Origin: an uncultured Verrucomicrobiota bacterium
Lineage (GTDB): Bacteria > Verrucomicrobiota > Kiritimatiellia > Kiritimatiellales > Pontiellaceae
Assembly (NCBI GenBank): GCA_964486885.1
Contig: CAZAPF010000009.1
Coordinates: 43,308 to 107,307, forward strand
Direction of reading: 5' to 3'
DNA: 64,000 nt
A program made the position numbers and the translations under genes. Positions 3,241-60,807 of the stretch are shown piece after piece; positions within the stretch are counted from its first letter, which is position 1, and each line of letters begins with the position of its first letter. A model generated the notes under the pieces. That model worked only from the letters and a program-made list of their open reading frames with translations, was not told where the DNA came from and did no database searches.

Positions 3241-3368
3241 ATTGCCGACTTCCGATTTTTGATTTCCGATTTATGGAACTCACTCGGCGTTGGCCTTCAT
3301 TACTTAAAGCCGTCGCAGACCCACAATTCGTCAGTCTAAAATCAAAATTCAAAATTCCGCTGCCTAAG
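3241..3368. repeat. REP-like element in the rpsL upstream region: two inverted AT-rich heptad arms around a spacer containing the 18-mer GCCGTCGCAGACCCACAA
   Basis: The left arm at 3241-3273 (ATTGCCGACTTCCGATTTTTGATTTCCGATTTA) is roughly the reverse complement of the right arm at 3336-3368 (CTAAAATCAAAATTCAAAATTCCGCTGCCTAAG). The 18-mer at 3309-3326 recurs exactly at 42407-42424. Confidence 0.5.
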
Positions 3369-6837: not shown

Positions 6838-6951
6838 TAAATTATCAGGCTTTATCCGAGTTGCCTACGAGGTCGCGGAAGAGGCCTTTACGATTAAATG
6901 GATTATCTATTCATAAAATCATCGGTGTAATCAACGAAATCTATGGATAAT

Positions 6952-6985
6952 AAAAAAGCGCCCCGGCTGGGACGCTTTTTCCAGT
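6952..6985 (-). terminator. Rho-independent terminator downstream of rpoC
   Basis: The minus strand reads AGCGTCCC-AGCC-GGGGCGCT followed by TTTTTT, 18-50 nt after the rpoC stop. Confidence 0.8.
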
Positions 6986-7002: not shown

Positions 7003-11190
<4,188 letters not shown>

Positions 11191-32543: not shown

Positions 32544-32559
32544 AGCATCCTTCTCATAT

Positions 32560-32835
32560 GGAGGGACGGCCTCCGTGTCGTCCTAACGGAGAATCGGAGA
32601 GCTATATTGCGTGCGAAGGACGGGACAGAGCCCGTCCCTCCACTAGGTGAACATGGAAAATGAGGGGAGCAGAAGCAATTGAAGTACCGATTTCATAATT
32701 CCAATGGCTGGAGTTTTTTCCAGTGGCTGGAACTTGCAGGGGAGCCGCCAAGCTGGCGGCGGTACGTACCGCCAGCTTCCAGCAGGCTCGGCTGTAGGGG
32801 TAACCTCCGTGTCGCCCTGTGGTGAATCGGCACAA
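32560..32835. repeat. Cluster of REP-like structured repeats filling the globin / histidine-kinase intergenic region
   Basis: 32560-32641 is a GGAGGGACGG...CCGTCCCTCC-clamped element with internal hairpins. 32699-32733 holds two direct copies of TTCCA(A/G)TGGCTGGA. 32747-32780 is a long hairpin, AAGCTGGCGG...CCGCCAGCTT. 32804-32816 is CCTCCGTGTCGCC, which also occurs as CCTCCGTGTCGTC at 32570 and exactly at 60632. Confidence 0.7.
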
Positions 32836-36833: not shown

Positions 36834-36934
36834 TGGAGGGCGATGAAATTGCTTCTAAGGTTGCAATTATATCCGAGCCGGCACGTGCGCAGGGGTTCGG
36901 ACTGAGCCTCACCCTCCAAATTTATATCCGCTGA
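36834..36934 (+). repeat. 101-nt composite hairpin element, copy A (GGAGGG...CCCTCC clamp)
   Basis: Layout: TGGAGGGCGA + TG + 25-nt mini-palindrome (36846-36870) + core hairpin ATCCGAGCCGGCACGTGCGCAGGGGTTCGGA + CTGAG + CCTCACCCTCCAAATTTATATCCGCTGA. It starts 23 nt after the hpt stop. Confidence 0.8.
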
Positions 36935-37040
36935 GCCGAATGTTTTGATCATTCCTTGGGAACTGGCATATCCGCCAGAATGAAGCGAGGTTTCATCCAA
37001 CCCAGCACCCACGTTTTTCTGAAGTCAGAGCCGCCTCGTG

Positions 37041-37141
37041 TGGAGGGCGAGGTTCCATCCGAGCCGTACGTGCGCAGGGAGTTCGGACATAATTGCAACC
37101 TTAGAAGCAATTTCCTCACCCTCCAAATTTATGTCCCCTGA
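37041..37141 (+). repeat. 101-nt composite hairpin element, copy B (same head, core and tail as A; the 25-nt module is on the other side and inverted)
   Basis: Layout: TGGAGGGCGA + GGTTCC + core ATCCGAGCCGTACGTGCGCAGGGAGTTCGGA (28/31 identical to A) + C + ATAATTGCAACCTTAGAAGCAATTT (37089-37113, the exact reverse complement of 36846-36870) + CCTCACCCTCCAAATTTATGTCCCCTGA. Confidence 0.8.
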
Positions 37142-42378: not shown

Positions 42379-42406
42379 TAATCTCTGTTGTACTTATCCG
42401 GAATAT

Positions 42407-42456
42407 GCCGTCGCAGACCCACAAATCAAAATTCAAAATTCGCAATTCAAAATTCG
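42407..42456. repeat. Second copy of GCCGTCGCAGACCCACAA followed by AATCAAAATTCAAAATTC-type heptads
   Basis: The 18-mer is identical to 3309-3326. The following AT-rich heptads resemble 3338-3356. Confidence 0.6.
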
Positions 42457-42474
42457 TCCACCTATAGTGGCCGC

Positions 42475-45400
42475 ATGAACATTGTCTATAACGCATCGGC
42501 CGGGACCGGGAAAACCTATCAGGTGACCCGGCTCTACGAGGAACTGGTCCTCAAAGAGCAAATCGATCCCCGCGAAATTCTACTGATGACGTTTACCGAC
42601 AACGCCGCAGCCGAGCTGCGCATGCGCGTTTCCCATCTTCTGCTGAAAGCCCGCCGGCATGCTGAACAGGAAGGGAATGATGAACGGGCGGAGCAGGCCA
42701 TCACGGCCATGTCCCGCCTTCCCTCCGCACCGATTGGTACGATTCATTCCTTCTGTACGCGCCTGTTGAGGGAACATGCTCTGGAGGCCGGCCTCTCTCC
42801 GGGCTTTTCGGTGCTGGTCGGCGATGACCATGACGATTTGTTAAATGACATCTGCCGCAGGGAACTGCTGAACCGACTTGAAACCGACCCCGACTTTAAA
42901 GCCTTCTGCTCGGGAGCACACATCATTGGCTCCGGCGGCGGGTTTGGCTCCAGCATTACCGAAACCGTGCCCAATCTCATCGCCCAGGCCGGCAGCCTGG
43001 GCATATCACTCGCTGAGGCAGAGAGGATGCTGCCCAATCCTGAATCTGCCGGATCGCTCCCTGCCTTTTCAGTAATCCTTAACCGCCTGAAAGAACTGCC
43101 CAAGTTAACCGCGAAGGCTCAATTGGTTGCCCAATGCCTCGAAGAGTATTTACCAACAGTCAAAACCGTGGAGGAACTGGCAGGAAAACTGAACAAGACG
43201 AAGCTGGTTAAATTCGGGCAGGGCAAAGGGCAAAAACCCATCTCCGATGATTTTTGGGAGTTGCTCAACGCCGTTAATGATTCAATTAAATACAGGGAAC
43301 GTTTTCCGGCAGCGAAAGCCTTTGCCCGTTACGTGCAGTCGGTCGTTACGCAGTTTCAACAGCGGAAACACGACATAGATGCTGTTGACTTCGATGACCA
43401 GCTGCACATGGCGGCCGACCTGCTGGAATCCGGAAAAGCGAAGCCGGAATTTAAATATGTAATTGTGGATGAAGTTCAGGATACCTCCCGCATTCAATGC
43501 CAGCTGATCCAGTCGCTTTGGGGCTCGGAAACAAACCTGGTGATCTGCGGCGATAAAAAACAGAGCATCTACACCTGGCGCGGCGCTGATCCGCAGGTTA
43601 TGCCCGACCTTGAACAAGCCATTCTTGCCCGCGAGGACAGCACGCTGGAAAACCTACAAACCAGTTACCGCTCAAAGGAGCCCATCCTTGAGGTGGTTAA
43701 CGCACTGTTTTCCTCAGTATATGGAAGTAAGGACTATGCAGAAGGCGACTGCTTGCTGCCCAACCCCGCTTTTAAAACCGGCGGAGAGAAAGCATGTGTA
43801 GAGTTTCTGCAATCCGACGCCGGAGAAGACCTGCAGAAGCAGGAAAAAGTGGCAGAGGAAATGGCGGCGGTCGCCAACCGTATTCAGCTGTTGATCAGCG
43901 GCTCCAAAGAGTGGCAACCGGGTTTCCGATATTCCGAAACATTCAGAAAAACAGAAGAGACAAATCGATACCGCTATTCTGACATTCTTATCCTCTTACG
44001 GCGCACCACCCATCAGTCCGCCCTGGAACACGCCCTCCGCCACGCCGGGATCCCCTATACCCTTGGCGGCAAGGGTCGCGGACTTTTTACCCGGCAGGAA
44101 ACCCGGGATGTATCTCTTTTCCTCAACGTGGTCACCAACCCGGACGATGCTTATGCTCTGGTCGGCTTTTTGCGTTCCCCCTGGATCGGTCTGTCCGATG
44201 AAACCATCGCTGAGCTGGCCTATTCCGACGACGGATTTTCAATTGATAACCTGAAAGAGTATTTTAGTGGCATGGGCTGCCTTCCCATGAGTCACGGGCA
44301 GGATGCCCGTGCTACTATCCTACGCTATCGCAAGCTGCTCGGGACACATCTCGCTTCCGAACTGGTTCGGATGCTAATCAACGAAACCGGATATGATGCC
44401 CTGCTGGCCGGATTGCCTCGGGGCACACAGCGGCTGGCTAATCTTCGCAAGGTTCTTGACTGGCTTCGGGAAGCCGAACGCGGGGCGCAAACAACACCGG
44501 CTTCGGTTGCCCGGAAACTGGCCGAACAAATCAACAACCCGCCCAATGTCCCGGAAGCTGCTTTGCTGGATCCTGCACAGAATGCGGTCACGGTAATGAC
44601 CGTGCATGGCTCGAAGGGACTCACCAAACGCGTCGTCGTGTTACCGGACATCAGCTTCCGGCCGGATTCAGATCGCGATTTTTCCCGCGTTGGCTTCAAT
44701 GATCATCACCAACCGTTACTGAGCGTTAAAATTACAGCCCCGGATAAATCGAGTGTGATGTCGCCCGGCTTCAAAGCGGCTAACACGCGGGCCAGAGATG
44801 TTCGTAATCACGAACTCAAGAATCTGTTTTATGTGGCCATGACGCGTGCCCGCGACCTGGTTATCACCTCGGCATCCATTGGAAAGAAGCCGGAAGGCTG
44901 GCTCGAACAGATGGAACCTTTGATTTGTTCGGCCATTCCGGCGATCCCCTACTCCCGGCTGAGCGAAGCTGCAGAGCATGCCCTGCAGCCAACCCATGAT
45001 ATCCCGATGCCTGAAAAGCTGACTGAAGCACTTCATTCCATTCCTGCACCGCCGGAGCGACCAAGAATTCAACGCATTCCTGCAACCCGGCTGGCAAAAG
45101 AAGAAGATGTGCTGGAACAGGAATTTGAACACACTAATTTTAAATCCATGAAGAAGGCTGCGGCCATGGGATCGCTCGGCCACGCGGTACTCGAACAACT
45201 GGCACTGAATGGCTGGAACGGATCGACTACCGAATGGCTGAAACAACTGTGCGATGAATTTAATTTATCCTATGCCGAAGCAAGCATTCTCACGGAACGG
45301 CTTGAGCAAACCCGGATCCTGATGATTGAGCTGACGGCTGATATGAAAGAACTCCATCCTGAATTTCCCTTTCTCCTGCAGCACGAGGATAAATTGATCG

Positions 45401-45621
45401 ACGGCTCTATCGACCTTTTGTGCAGAACGAAGAACGGATTTGCCATTTTTGACTATAAGTTTACTGAGGCCGACGACGCTGCAGTGGCGGGTCAGTACAG
45501 GGCCCAGATGAACATTTATCGTCAGGCCGCCGAAAAAAAATATCCCTATGCCGGAGAAGCAAGCACTCAGTTGATCGTGGCATCCAGCGGAAAGCCTCGC
45601 ATAATTTCATTGGATTTCTAA
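42475..45621 (+). CDS. UvrD/AddA-like helicase with a C-terminal PD-(D/E)XK nuclease domain
   Basis: From ATG 42475 the protein starts MNIVYNASAGTGKTY (Walker A). It has the DExQ box VIVDEVQD, motifs III-VI, and a C-terminal IDGSIDLL...FAIFDYKF nuclease motif. The track start at 42388 reads through upstream repeats. Confidence 0.85.
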   Translation: MNIVYNASAGTGKTYQVTRLYEELVLKEQIDPREILLMTFTDNAAAELRMRVSHLLLKARRHAEQEGNDERAEQAITAMSRLPSAPIGTIHSFCTRLLREHALEAGLSPGFSVLVGDDHDDLLNDICRRELLNRLETDPDFKAFCSGAHIIGSGGGFGSSITETVPNLIAQAGSLGISLAEAERMLPNPESAGSLPAFSVILNRLKELPKLTAKAQLVAQCLEEYLPTVKTVEELAGKLNKTKLVKFGQGKGQKPISDDFWELLNAVNDSIKYRERFPAAKAFARYVQSVVTQFQQRKHDIDAVDFDDQLHMAADLLESGKAKPEFKYVIVDEVQDTSRIQCQLIQSLWGSETNLVICGDKKQSIYTWRGADPQVMPDLEQAILAREDSTLENLQTSYRSKEPILEVVNALFSSVYGSKDYAEGDCLLPNPAFKTGGEKACVEFLQSDAGEDLQKQEKVAEEMAAVANRIQLLISGSKEWQPGFRYSETFRKTEETNRYRYSDILILLRRTTHQSALEHALRHAGIPYTLGGKGRGLFTRQETRDVSLFLNVVTNPDDAYALVGFLRSPWIGLSDETIAELAYSDDGFSIDNLKEYFSGMGCLPMSHGQDARATILRYRKLLGTHLASELVRMLINETGYDALLAGLPRGTQRLANLRKVLDWLREAERGAQTTPASVARKLAEQINNPPNVPEAALLDPAQNAVTVMTVHGSKGLTKRVVVLPDISFRPDSDRDFSRVGFNDHHQPLLSVKITAPDKSSVMSPGFKAANTRARDVRNHELKNLFYVAMTRARDLVITSASIGKKPEGWLEQMEPLICSAIPAIPYSRLSEAAEHALQPTHDIPMPEKLTEALHSIPAPPERPRIQRIPATRLAKEEDVLEQEFEHTNFKSMKKAAAMGSLGHAVLEQLALNGWNGSTTEWLKQLCDEFNLSYAEASILTERLEQTRILMIELTADMKELHPEFPFLLQHEDKLIDGSIDLLCRTKNGFAIFDYKFTEADDAAVAGQYRAQMNIYRQAAEKKYPYAGEASTQLIVASSGKPRIISLDF
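44271..44315 (+). repeat. 45-nt double-hairpin palindromic element inside the helicase-nuclease CDS, in frame
   Basis: CATGGGCTGCCTTCCCATG-AGT-CACGGGCAGGATGCCCGTG-CTAC, translated (G)MGCLPMSHGQDARAT. Confidence 0.8.
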
Positions 45622-46409: not shown

Positions 46410-46466
46410 GCCGGCATCCTACCCGTTTTGGCGGCAGGGGAATCATGGGCAAGATGCCCATGCTAC
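46410..46466 (+). repeat. Intergenic, partly degenerate copy of the double-hairpin element between the convergent GT2 and rsmA genes
   Basis: GCCGGCATCCTACCCGTT (degenerate first hairpin) + 16-nt spacer + CATGGGCAAGATGCCCATG-CTAC. Confidence 0.65.
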
Positions 46467-46472
46467 CAACAA

Positions 46473-47351
46473 CTACGACAAAATCCGCGCCAGTTCCGCC
46501 CACCGCTCTATCTCGATTTTTTCCGGACGTTCGGTGTGGTCGATTTCAGCTTCAAGCAGCTTATCATCGACTGCTGCAATACCCATGCGTTTCAGAATGG
46601 TTCCAATCTGTTTGCGGCGCTGTGAAAAACAGTGCTTCACCAGTTTCTTAAACGCCGGATATTGGTCATTACTGATAACCGGAATATCACGTCGCTCCAT
46701 TTTCACCACAGCAGACCAAACTTTCGGGGGAGGAAGAAAGCAGGTAGGACTGATCTTTTTAACCAGTGTATTTATATAGAATACACCGGTCAGAATACTC
46801 AGCACACCATAATGCTTATCCCCTGCAGGAGAGCACAAGCGGTCGGCCACTTCCTTCTGAATCGTGAGCGACATTAACTCAGGACGGCGTTCGCACTCGG
46901 CAATATCCACCATCAGCCGGCTGGCTACTGAATACGGGAGATTGGCGGCCACCTTGGTGATTCCTGCGATAAAAAGCTCATTCATATCCACATCCAGCGC
47001 ATCCGATTCAATGAGTGAAAACGTAGCACGGGCATCCTGCCCGTGATCCATGGGCAGGATGCCCATGTTACTTTCAAAACGCGACTTGAGGTATTTCACC
47101 ATCGTCGGATCTTTTTCAATGCAGGTAATCAATTTTGCCTTTGGAATAATCCGTTCCGTCAGGGCTCCGAGACCCGGGCCGATTTCCAGCACAGACTCAT
47201 CCGCATGGATGTCGGCTGTATTGGCAATGATATCAAGAATGTTGGCGTCGATCAGATAGTTTTGGCCCAGCCCTTTATTCGGTCGGTGCCCCAAGCTTTC
47301 CAACAGGGCACGCACTTCCTTCGGGCTCGTTAATCTCGGTTCTTCAGACAT
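46473..47351 (-). CDS. rsmA: 16S rRNA (adenine1518/1519-N6)-dimethyltransferase
   Basis: 292 aa with GQNYLID, EIGPGLGALT and NLPY. It lies downstream of pdxA as in E. coli. It contains a 15-aa insert encoded by the palindromic element. Confidence 0.93.
   Translation of the reverse strand: MSEEPRLTSPKEVRALLESLGHRPNKGLGQNYLIDANILDIIANTADIHADESVLEIGPGLGALTERIIPKAKLITCIEKDPTMVKYLKSRFESNMGILPMDHGQDARATFSLIESDALDVDMNELFIAGITKVAANLPYSVASRLMVDIAECERRPELMSLTIQKEVADRLCSPAGDKHYGVLSILTGVFYINTLVKKISPTCFLPPPKVWSAVVKMERRDIPVISNDQYPAFKKLVKHCFSQRRKQIGTILKRMGIAAVDDKLLEAEIDHTERPEKIEIERWAELARILS
47023..47067 (-). repeat. 45-nt double-hairpin palindromic element inside rsmA, in frame
   Basis: The gene-sense strand reads CATGGGCATCCTGCCCATG-GAT-CACGGGCAGGATGCCCGTG-CTAC, translated MGILPMDHGQDARAT. 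Confidence 0.85.
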
Positions 47352-60515: not shown

Positions 60516-60541
60516 AAAAAGCCCCGGAGCACTTCCGGGGC
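60516..60541 (-). terminator. Rho-independent terminator for the minus-strand operon coming from the right
   Basis: The minus strand reads GCCCCGGA-AGTGC-TCCGGGGC followed by TTTTT. Confidence 0.7.
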
Positions 60542-60807
60542 CACTGGGCATCAGGAGCTTTGTGTGAATCATTTGCCTGTCGACCGTGACTTAACACAAT
60601 CTGGACAAGGGCATCAGCTTATTGATTTGCACCTCCGTGTCGCCAGTTAATTTTTTAGATACTATTCTGCGAAAAATGTTCCAAAAAAAACGAAGACCAA
60701 TGAGGAAAGGTTTTCAGGAAATGTCACCATACCGTGGAGGGAGCTATAGGTGTAGTTCGCAGAACCAACGGCACTAGCCGTTCAGCACATAAAATTCTTG
60801 CCGACAT

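Follow-up and report, generated by a model that had tools for sequence, protein, structure and literature searches.

A probable mobile REP doublet in frame in a predicted surface loop of RsmA from a marine Pontiella-like bacterium

In a 64-kb stretch of DNA from a marine Pontiella-like bacterium (hereafter the window), a sequence-only reading had placed a 45-nt double-hairpin palindrome in frame inside the rRNA methyltransferase gene rsmA and had likened it to the palindromic elements of Rickettsia. The gene, the element and its relatives in the window were annotated as follows.

42388-45621, plus strand: UvrD/AddA-like helicase-nuclease ORF (Pfam UvrD-helicase, UvrD_C and PDDEXK_1), host of the second doublet
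44267-44315, plus strand: second REP doublet, in the helicase-nuclease gene, reading in frame as MGCLPMSHGQDARAT
Parts of the helicase doublet: GTGG tag 44267-44270; decayed hairpin 44271-44289; spacer 44290-44292; intact hairpin 44293-44311; CTAC tag 44312-44315
46444-46466, minus strand: single extragenic REP, GTAG-CATGGGCATCTTGCCCATG, with its CTAC tag at 46463-46466 on the plus strand
46473-47351, minus strand: host gene rsmA/ksgA, 292 aa (PF00398 RrnaAD, E 3e-51)
47023-47071, minus strand: REP tail-to-tail doublet (REPIN-like) in rsmA, 49 nt, recognised by pattern, tag and fold
Parts of the rsmA doublet, in plus-strand order: GTAG tag 47023-47026; hairpin 47027-47045; spacer 47046-47048; hairpin 47049-47067; degenerate tag TTAC 47068-47071

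As had been claimed, the sequence of 47023-47067 on the minus strand is exactly CATGGGCATCCTGCCCATG-GAT-CACGGGCAGGATGCCCGTG-CTAC, lies within the rsmA ORF and is translated as MGILPMDHGQDARAT; the whole doublet reads as (N)MGILPMDHGQDARAT in a stop-free frame. The 45-nt core is present, but the full unit comprises 49 nt once the second, degenerate tag is counted, which is GTAA in the gene sense, and the gain of 15 codons had to be corrected to a net gain over empty alleles of 48 nt or 16 codons. The predicted tryptic peptide of the translated insert is FESNMGILPMDHGQDAR. Each hairpin is 19 nt long with a stem of 7-8 bp, and the GTAG and TTAC tags point outwards. The arms 47020-47045 and 47049-47074 are 85% complementary, and the doublet can form either a pair of hairpins or a single long one, the latter being the minimum-energy fold. 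Folding of the RNA gave -39 kcal/mol (z -7.3 against shuffles) and folding of the DNA approximately -20.3 to -20.9 kcal/mol (z -6.4 to -7.5), with z ranging from -4 to -7.5 over the hairpins tested as REP palindromes. The hairpin pattern with at most one mismatch was matched five times in the window compared to 0.03 matches expected from shuffles. Gathering and E-value searches of Rfam gave no family match to the element; one sub-threshold match to a lncRNA was attributed to chance. To call the host gene essential was too strong, as ksgA/rsmA is conserved yet dispensable in E. coli.

The second copy in an unrelated gene also proved to be real. It covers 44271-44315 in the UvrD/PD-(D/E)XK helicase-nuclease ORF (called gene of 1048 aa), and the doublet there is 86% complementary to the rsmA doublet over 50 nt. 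Both have the same orientation relative to their host genes but are inverted to each other in the genome, and their shared frame is no signal, since three of the six frames of the rsmA doublet are open and every one of the six hairpin frames is used among other host genes. Among relatives, L124 shares the helicase doublet with an intact left hairpin, L125 and L128 lack it, and L207 carries a differently built one. The single REP is located in the 64-nt gap between the convergent genes for a GT2 glycosyltransferase and RsmA, which is a typical position of an extragenic REP. With one extragenic locus between convergent genes, two of the three loci in the window lie inside genes, an uncommon location for 'extragenic' palindromes, and this counts against the REP reading. 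The apparently sparse copies in Pontiellaceae DNA count against it as well, since high copy numbers are typical of REPs: three tagged loci were found in 64 kb, zero to two hairpins in each of the relatives' 10-20 kb loci, and no tagged REP loci in two relatives with 20 kb each.

Beyond the window, where a search with the element had been proposed, the repeat turned out to be dispersed over more than 120 genome loci with 136 exact matches to the hairpin. It is followed by CCAC in 81 and by CTAC in 30 of these, so that the tag is kept in 111 of 136, and the tagged hairpin occurs across Planctomycetota, Verrucomicrobiota and Kiritimatiellia. Many matches form doublets of the type GTGG-hp1-NNN-hp2-CCAC, and loop variants of hp1 recur at the rsmA and helicase sites of relatives. 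Ninety-two of the 136 matches in other genomes were not within a long open frame. Exact matches in Bordetella, Selenomonadales and Bacteroidota are untagged, lie in ordinary coding sequence and were treated as chance.

The behaviour had been thought undescribed for this kind of genome, but GTAG-19 repeats were reported in 2013 from Opitutus terrae, a verrucomicrobium of the PVC group of Planctomycetota, Verrucomicrobiota and relatives, in frame in approximately 70 ORFs (Di Nocera, De Gregorio and Rocco 2013, BMC Genomics 14:522; PMC3733652). According to that report, intragenic GTAG-19 encodes HGRDARAT, VHGQDARAT, MGVPPM and WHGRPAHDHGRDARAT, forms tail-to-tail dimers with spacers of 1-2 bp and resides in hosts including excinuclease UvrA, DNA ligase and RecD; REP-decorated UvrD/REP helicase and recBCD genes are given separately from the O. 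terrae list, across the surveyed species (PMC3733652). The family in the window is alike in its short GT(A/G)G-tagged hairpins, its tail-to-tail dimers with 1-3 nt spacers, its PVC host and its peptides MGILPMDHGQDARAT and MGCLPMSHGQDARAT, and was matched to GTAG-19 by tag, peptides and dimer architecture. It differs in its host, a member of the Pontiellaceae (Kiritimatiellota), in the loop variant AGGAT/ATCCT and in its low copy density in the DNA read, and rsmA is not among the GTAG-19 hosts named in the 2013 paper. The rsmA doublet is a new case of an already described repeat family and not a novel class.

A comparison with REPIN-RAYT systems and with E. coli REP/BIME and its TnpA-REP (Bertels and Rainey 2011, PMC3116915; Nunvar 2010, PMC2817692; Messing 2012, PMC3479197) showed the same inverted REP doublet forming one long hairpin, the same 5' GTAG 'foot', and a cognate HUH/Y1 transposase gene flanked by REPs, here in the loci L211 and L077. 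The spacer is 3 nt instead of tens of nt, the same 19-mer is common to several phyla while classical REPINs are lineage-specific, and many copies, even the RAYT gene itself, are found within coding sequence, unlike in classical REPINs. In L211 (Pontiellaceae bacterium B1224, an isolate) the RAYT gene has CATGGGCG(A/G)GACGCCCATG-CCAC-AAACC-GTGG-AACGGGCGTCCCGCCCGTT on either side, and in L077 it is flanked by doublets containing CACGGGCAGGATG(C/T)CCGTG-CCAC, REP pairs thus standing on both sides of a PF01797 gene in each locus. A RAYT-like gene was near the hairpin in two of 120 hairpin loci (approximately 12-40 nt away in L077 and 175 nt in L068), where about 0.2 of 120 would be expected by chance to have one anywhere in the locus. 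A tblastn search of the window and its direct relatives with six published RAYT/TIRYT sequences detected no RAYT, and the absence of one from the window counts against mobilisation by a RAYT. Non-disruptive in-frame REPs and a 'double foot' G[TC][AG]G...C[TC]AC are also known from tnpA-REP subclass 2.4, where the host gene is the transposase itself and not, as here, a housekeeping gene (Quentin et al. 2018; PMC6006769).

In RsmA the doublet occupies the loop that joins helix 82-93 to strand 111-114. The insert's place in the KsgA structure, which it had been suggested to check, was read from an AF2 model of the insert-bearing protein. The model keeps a normal KsgA fold (B. subtilis KsgA 6ift, TM 0.84) apart from the insert, which falls in a loop of low confidence and is modelled as coil, with a pLDDT below 50 at residues 95-101. 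Among the 120 closest Pontiellaceae orthologues, 85 have an empty site of two residues only (S/T-D), with CGT TTC TCT GAT TTC ACG as the DNA of the empty allele, indicating that the element itself makes up the extra residues of the loop, as had been supposed from a comparison with E. coli KsgA, and that the rsmA element is a true insertion and not an ancestral loop. ORF translation and orthologue alignment together bear out an in-frame, stop-free palindromic insertion. A metagenome scan with generic peptide patterns gave, among the matches listed, at least four Pontiellaceae loci, all with empty rsmA alleles. As the identical insert-bearing protein was present on 11 contigs and the three loci examined came from three different samples, the insert is not an assembly artefact. 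Allele comparisons allowed neither a target-site duplication nor a precise empty-site footprint to be defined around the insert; GTTTT/TTTTC direct repeats were rejected as such a footprint because the flanking TTT/TTY are ancestral Phe codons, present in empty alleles too. Depending on the lineage, one of three distinct palindromic inserts is found at the same rsmA codon. Within the type-1 alleles the junctions are identical throughout, and codons for conserved residues are 78-92% identical in the insert versus 42-51% in the rest of the gene (Fisher p 0.0008-0.025), suggesting that the identity of the type-1 inserts is one of DNA rather than of protein.

From its tag, architecture, distribution and the REP-flanked RAYT genes, the element is probably a GT(A/G)G-tagged REP tail-to-tail doublet of the REPIN/BIME type, belonging to a family spread across Planctomycetota, Verrucomicrobiota and Kiritimatiellia, recognised by a RAYT and carried by RsmA as a passive loop. 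The far stronger conservation of synonymous positions in the insert than in the rest of the gene might also be explained by co-option, with selection on the hairpin itself, which could regulate rsmA as DNA or mRNA (as attenuator, RNase barrier or protein-binding site), or with the peptide serving as a new interaction surface. Occupation of the same rsmA site in many lineages would fit such a role, as would the terminator-like score of the gene-strand right hairpin and the following CTACGTTTTC in a consensus scan, although the terminator match is a weak one to the consensus, in which a short T run follows only after a gap of 4 nt, and Rfam gave no match. We consider co-option unlikely, since 85 of the 120 orthologues do without the insert, the three unrelated sequences at one site speak against a specific peptide or RNA function, and other hosts read the same hairpin in all of its six frames. 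Moreover, copies decay: the right stem of the rsmA insert in L209 and the left hairpin of the helicase doublet in the window are broken, which is more in keeping with a passenger than with a structure that is required.

Slightly less probable still is another class of mobile element, RPE-like or a MITE, or a hairpin spread solely by recombination or gene conversion and independent of a RAYT. The rsmA genes of L212 and L213 are near-identical and differ by the insert and 19 mismatches clustered within approximately 40 nt on either side, a mosaic that resembles a short imported tract and suggests recombination around the insert. The insert type also does not follow the RsmA core phylogeny: the neighbour-joining tree, which is star-like and was used solely for the insert state of neighbours and not for counts of gain and loss, often joins nearest neighbours that differ in insert state. 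Recombination may therefore shuffle alleles, but it leaves the dispersal to unrelated genes unexplained, and for it, as for another class, the retention of the tag, across phyla, by 111 of 136 copies and the RAYT genes with REPs on both sides in L211 and L077 are difficult to accommodate, even if the window itself has no RAYT. A MITE is not supported: the hairpins themselves are the only inverted repeats, no target-site duplication could be made out, and the flanking TTT/TTY are ancestral Phe codons. With Rickettsia palindromic elements the doublet shares the behaviour described for them, in-frame and stop-free peptide insertion into conserved proteins, and not membership; the earlier assignment to them is contradicted by the GT(A/G)G tag, the tail-to-tail architecture, the length of 45-49 nt and the relatives that flank RAYT genes. 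RPE-1, of roughly 100-150 bp, is much longer than the element in the window. Tag, sequence and host clade differ as well. RPE-4 and RPE-6 are assigned in the 2013 report to a CGTC-tagged superfamily without an associated transposase (PMC3733652). An ancestral origin of the 15-16 residues, as an RsmA loop lost by most relatives and with a coincidental likeness to the repeat, would agree with the identical junctions of all type-1 alleles but is effectively refuted by the 86% nucleotide identity to the copy in an unrelated gene, the repeat at more than 120 loci of other phyla, the dominance of empty alleles, the B. subtilis KsgA structures 6ifs and 7v2l, which align across the region without an insert, and the other palindromes at the same site.

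For the REP doublet we propose that a RAYT (HUH/Y1 REP-associated tyrosine transposase) would recognise REPs in the form of single-stranded DNA hairpins and cleave them at the tag, and that the REP pair, with tags outward and a 3-nt spacer, would behave as a non-autonomous mobile element. One copy would have been inserted into the two-residue loop from helix alphaB to strand beta3 of the RsmA Rossmann fold, predicted to lie next to the N-terminus of beta3, across the sheet from the SAM site. The insert would persist there because it adds a net 48 nt in a stop-free frame to a disordered surface loop, and it would be translated as a passive extension of 16 residues and not as a functional module.

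Whole RAYT genes were also found in single uninterrupted reading frames with valS, alaS, sua5, ddl, ilvC and tatD across these phyla. A TatD-RAYT ORF of this kind is present in B1224. They are clearly internal to the host gene solely in valS, alaS and sua5, the internal valS case apparently having neither its own start nor its own stop codon; those upstream of ddl and downstream of ilvC or tatD may be read-through ORFs rather than internal insertions. In a previous survey, RAYT proteins of unusual length were set aside as fusions or misannotations (Quentin et al. 2018; PMC6006769). We tentatively suggest, as a possibility somewhat short of an even chance, that coding sequence is a main habitat of REPs and RAYTs in PVC bacteria: certain surface loops, among them the RsmA alphaB-beta3 loop and one AddA/UvrD loop, would be recurrent landing pads where several palindromic families are gained, swapped and lost, partly via short recombination tracts, and REP-RAYT-REP units would sit inside housekeeping genes or be fused to them in frame, the transposase being made and inherited with the host enzyme. 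We found no description of this habitat or of host-embedded RAYTs in the literature.

For annotation, the 16 extra residues of RsmA and the insert of the helicase are best taken as repeat-derived loops and not as domains, frameshifts or assembly errors, and HGQDARAT, TGRMPV or GILPV-like peptides in PVC proteins can be read likewise. At the rsmA locus a structured selfish repeat persists where only in-frame and precise changes are tolerated, and, at a single codon of a conserved gene, three palindromic families can replace one another between close relatives. The RAYT gene apparently embedded in frame in essential genes of several phyla would, if confirmed, be an unusual way for a transposase to persist and to be expressed.

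The double hairpin that the sequence-only reading had placed inside rsmA is indeed present on the minus strand, in an ORF matching PF00398 (E 3e-51). A search with the hairpin pattern, one mismatch allowed, found five matches in the window, where shuffles predict 0.03, and these five fall into three loci, listed here with the rsmA ORF:

47023-47067, minus strand: rsmA doublet, reading CATGGGCATCCTGCCCATG-GAT-CACGGGCAGGATGCCCGTG-CTAC, translated MGILPMDHGQDARAT
46473..47351, minus strand: rsmA/ksgA ORF, 292 aa
44267-44315: second doublet, in a UvrD/PD-(D/E)XK helicase-nuclease ORF, translated MGCLPMSHGQDARAT
46444-46466: single hairpin, in the 64-nt gap between a convergent glycosyltransferase gene and rsmA

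The tags of these copies are GTAG, CTAC and CTAC, with degenerate partner tags (GTAA, GTGG). The rsmA gene lies downstream of pdxA, an arrangement common in bacteria, and its allele is no assembly artefact, because an identical RsmA protein occurs on 11 contigs, the three loci shown coming from three different samples. On folding, the rsmA unit can form two hairpins or one long hairpin (RNA, -39 kcal/mol, z -7.3; DNA, about -20.3 to -20.9 kcal/mol, z -6.4 to -7.5). A simple consensus scan of the sense strand also marked the right hairpin with the following CTACGTTTTC (47027-47045, minus) as terminator-like, with a short T run 4 nt away from the stem.

Closest to the window RsmA are homologues from Pontiella and Pontiellaceae (Kiritimatiellota). 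The extra residues, which the sequence-only reading had equated with the element from the length of the loop, are absent from most orthologues: 85 of the 120 best matches have only two residues at the site (RF-[S/T][D/E/N/G]-FTLIESDAL) and a length of 275-297 aa, typically 276-278 aa, and the window protein is 16 residues longer there. In nucleotide sequence, P. sulfatireligans, with an empty allele, has CGT TTC TCT GAT TTC ACG where the window has CGT TTT GAA A-GTAA-[hairpin]-GAT-[hairpin]-CTAC-G TTT TCA. The extra residues are an insertion. An AlphaFold model based on 57 orthologues retains the KsgA fold (B. subtilis KsgA 6ift, TM 0.84). In it, residues 94-110 form a coil that links helix 82-93 to strand 111-114, and pLDDT falls below 50 for residues 95-101; the corresponding loop of other KsgA proteins has 4-7 residues. 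We take this to be the alphaB-beta3 loop of the standard class I methyltransferase topology, presumably where strand beta3 has its N-terminal end, across the sheet from the SAM pocket.

Among Pontiellaceae, the palindrome at this one rsmA codon position varies with the lineage:

Type 1, 11 alleles: REP doublet
Type 2, about 14 alleles: TGGAGGGA...TCCCTCCA double hairpin, read GG(S/T)PAS(A/L)(T/S)ADS..VPP
Type 3, 9 alleles: TCCTTCGCTGAAGCTTCGGCGGACAAG, read SFAEASADK
Compound, at least one allele (locus L210): type-2 element beside the right half of type 1

The left hairpin of type 1 varies in its loop, with ATCCT, GTCCC and TTCCA encoding the peptides GILPM, GVPPM and GFQPM. The termini of the type-2 insert, as found in L124 and L210, recur in the window at 32559-32642, where an intergenic palindromic element between convergent ORFs (TGGAGGGAC...GTCCCTCCA) has 26-nt arms, 85% complementary and 32 nt apart. 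Among nearest-neighbour protein pairs the insert state is discordant with the RsmA core, which is 98% identical between P0093 (type 2) and P0092 (empty), 94% between P0013 (type 1) and P0033 (type 3) as well as between P0045 (type 2) and P0066 (type 3), and 92% between P0002 (type 1) and P0015 (empty). The P0093 insert (locus L213) comprises the type-2 element and about 50 nt more. Its rsmA DNA matches that of P0092 (L212) at 100% identity for about 290 nt in each direction, and the two differ by the 102-nt palindromic insert, by 19 mismatches clustered within about 40 nt either side and by a second divergent block at the rsmA 3' end, in a mosaic pattern. The simplest reading would be a short recombination tract that brought the insert, with the caveat that both contigs are short and metagenomic. 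In type-1 alleles, codons of conserved residues are 78-92% identical within the insert versus 42-51% elsewhere (p 0.0008-0.025); insert identity is held at the DNA level, be it by recent spread, conversion from other copies or hairpin constraint. The helicase site shows a similar pattern: the doublet is present in the window and L124 and missing from L125 and L128, and L207 (about 6900-6960) has a differently built head-to-head pair, ...GCAGGCAAGGATGCCCGCG-CCAC-AT-GTGG-GGCAGGCATCCCTGCCTGCC. Such a hotspot may reflect a preferred target, an earlier palindrome that seeded later ones, or a scarcity of insertion-tolerant sites.

Species-representative genomes were scanned for exact copies of CAYGGGCAGGATGCCCRTG, which gave at least 120 loci and 136 listed matches, overwhelmingly from Planctomycetota, Verrucomicrobiota, Kiritimatiellia and Lentisphaerae, with a few from Acidobacteriota. 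The hairpin is followed by CCAC in 81 and by CTAC in 30 of these 136 (GTGG/GTAG on the other strand), and many listed matches are doublets of the form GTGG-hairpin1-NNN-hairpin2-CCAC. This arrangement is what defines GTAG-tagged REPs and their inverted doublets (REPIN/BIME). Of the 136 listed matches, 44 lie in open frames of 200 codons or more, with all six frames used, and our own sample confirms that intragenic copies are a general phenomenon. Hosts recognised by Pfam include:

NAD-dependent DNA ligase: match between or within real domains
IcmF-like MeaB-mutase fusion: two matches, between or within domains
DUF7948 protein: match between or within domains
Protein with HZS_alpha and 3keto-disac_hyd domains: match between or within domains
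ResIII helicase: match in the ORF, downstream of the sole recognised domain

Locus L119 (28-190) holds a tandem array of the hairpin with a 41-nt period, CACGGGCAGGATGCCCGTG-CTAC-GTTGACGCCCGTGGGACT, in at least four units. Other window repeats are a tagged hairpin of different sequence (60522-60544, minus, GTGG-CCCCGGA-AGTGC-TCCGGGG), which may be another REP family or a chance match; a MITE-like intergenic element (36834-37125) with inverted repeats of 43 nt (93% complementary, separated by 206 nt) and a 28-nt direct repeat ending CCTCACCCTCCA at 36907 and 37114; and a 58-nt repeat with AAATTCAAAATTC runs (3309-3366 and 42407-42464, 78% identity), the latter copy at the extreme 5' end of the helicase ORF.

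The Rickettsia palindromic elements (RPEs), to which the sequence-only reading had likened the insert, behave similarly but are of another family; the classic RPE-1 far exceeds the rsmA element in length. RPE-4 and RPE-6 are CGTC-type in the division of REPs into GTAG and CGTC superfamilies by Di Nocera, De Gregorio and Rocco (2013; PMC3733652), who recorded GTAG REPs for the PVC superphylum and the highest number of intragenic ones for Opitutus terrae. In their Additional file 3, about 70 O. terrae ORFs contain in-frame GTAG-19 copies, and therefore the rsmA element is a further case of the intragenic GTAG REPs already described, contrary to the supposed novelty; we found no literature on such REPs in Pontiella or Kiritimatiellota. 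The likeness to GTAG-19 extends to the encoded peptides (HGRDARAT, VHGQDARAT, GMGVPPM, MGGTPMPRGTGVPPV and WHGRPAHDHGRDARAT among them) and to tail-to-tail dimers with a short spacer, 1-2 bp in GTAG-19 (PMC3733652). The same authors emphasised repair genes as hosts (UvrA, UvrD/Rep, RecBCD, DNA ligase, DnaE2) and noted different REPs at about one shared site in recB of two Xanthomonas species (PMC3733652). In-frame REP insertions inside RAYT genes, the REP-associated tyrosine transposases, have also been described, and intragenic REPs cited as known (Quentin et al. 2018, PMC6006769).

Published RAYT sequences used in tblastn detected RAYT-like genes in 2 of the 120 listed hairpin loci, with about 0.2 loci expected by chance to have one anywhere, and none in the 64-kb window. 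In L077 the RAYT (PF01797, HVH and Y motifs) ends tens of nucleotides from the hairpin, is flanked on both sides by doublets with CACGGGCAGGATG(C/T)CCGTG-CCAC and has homologues annotated 'REP element-mobilizing transposase RayT'; the L068 match ends about 175 nt from the hairpin. The isolate Pontiellaceae bacterium B1224 (L211) has a RAYT with CATGGGCG(A/G)GACGCCCATG-CCAC-AAACC-GTGG-AACGGGCGTCCCGCCCGTT on either side of it, a REP pair with the same stem and tag as the window element; its GTCCC loop variant is also found in the rsmA left hairpin of L208 and at the helicase site of L124. In this locus (8861-10450, JAROBA010000022.1) a tatD ORF, a head-to-head REP pair (peptide HGRDAHATNRGTGVPPV) and the RAYT are read as one 486-aa product, and the pair is repeated right past the RAYT stop codon.

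A database search with the L077 segment showed that PVC-group bacteria have many single called genes combining the RAYT domain (PF01797) with housekeeping enzyme domains (proteins P0241-P0283). Together with the two loci these are:

L077, 4787-7996 (Planctomycetales bacterium 4572_13, NBLM01000021.1): complete RAYT flanked by REP doublets at both ends, in frame within a class I aminoacyl-tRNA synthetase (aaRS) gene
L068, about 1001-2299 (Verrucomicrobia bacterium V1-690): RAYT-like gene in frame in alaS (AlaRS)
PF01797 with class I aaRS domains: twelve proteins, P0241-P0253 excluding P0129
PF01797 with AlaRS C-terminal domains: for example P0262
PF01797 with Sua5/YrdC: P0272, internal, REP doublets on both sides
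PF01797 with D-Ala-D-Ala ligase (Ddl): P0269
PF01797 with IlvC: P0264
PF01797 with Helicase_C_2, isochorismate synthase, GATase, DNA methylase (N6_N4) or Pontiellaceae TatD: further combinations

Some of these ORFs are end-to-end read-through, others truly internal. In L077 the insertion lies between YPL and ATTRPETMLGD of the host, which appears ValRS-like by comparison with E. coli ValRS; no Met codon was seen immediately before the conserved N-terminal motif of the RAYT, and no stop codon separates the RAYT from the resumed host sequence. At least P0242 carries its RAYT at the identical site, and this sharing suggests long vertical inheritance. An earlier survey set long RAYT proteins aside as fusions or annotation errors (PMC6006769), and we found no description of RAYT-housekeeping single genes across PVC-group bacteria.

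The most probable explanation is that a RAYT-type system spreads the tagged hairpins by way of single-stranded DNA. Copies within genes would be kept only where their length is divisible by 3 nt, they are free of stops and the loop they enter is tolerant; the rsmA doublet is open in three of its six frames. Co-option of the insert as a regulatory hairpin or functional loop would fit its synonymous conservation and the weak terminator-like match, but the absence from most orthologues, the unrelated inserts at one rsmA site and the decaying stems make it unlikely. Slightly less credit still is due to a RAYT-independent repeat dispersed by recombination, and an ancestral RsmA loop has a negligible chance of being correct. 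Under RAYT-type dispersal, an intragenic copy may be lost less easily than an intergenic one, because only precise in-frame deletions would be viable.
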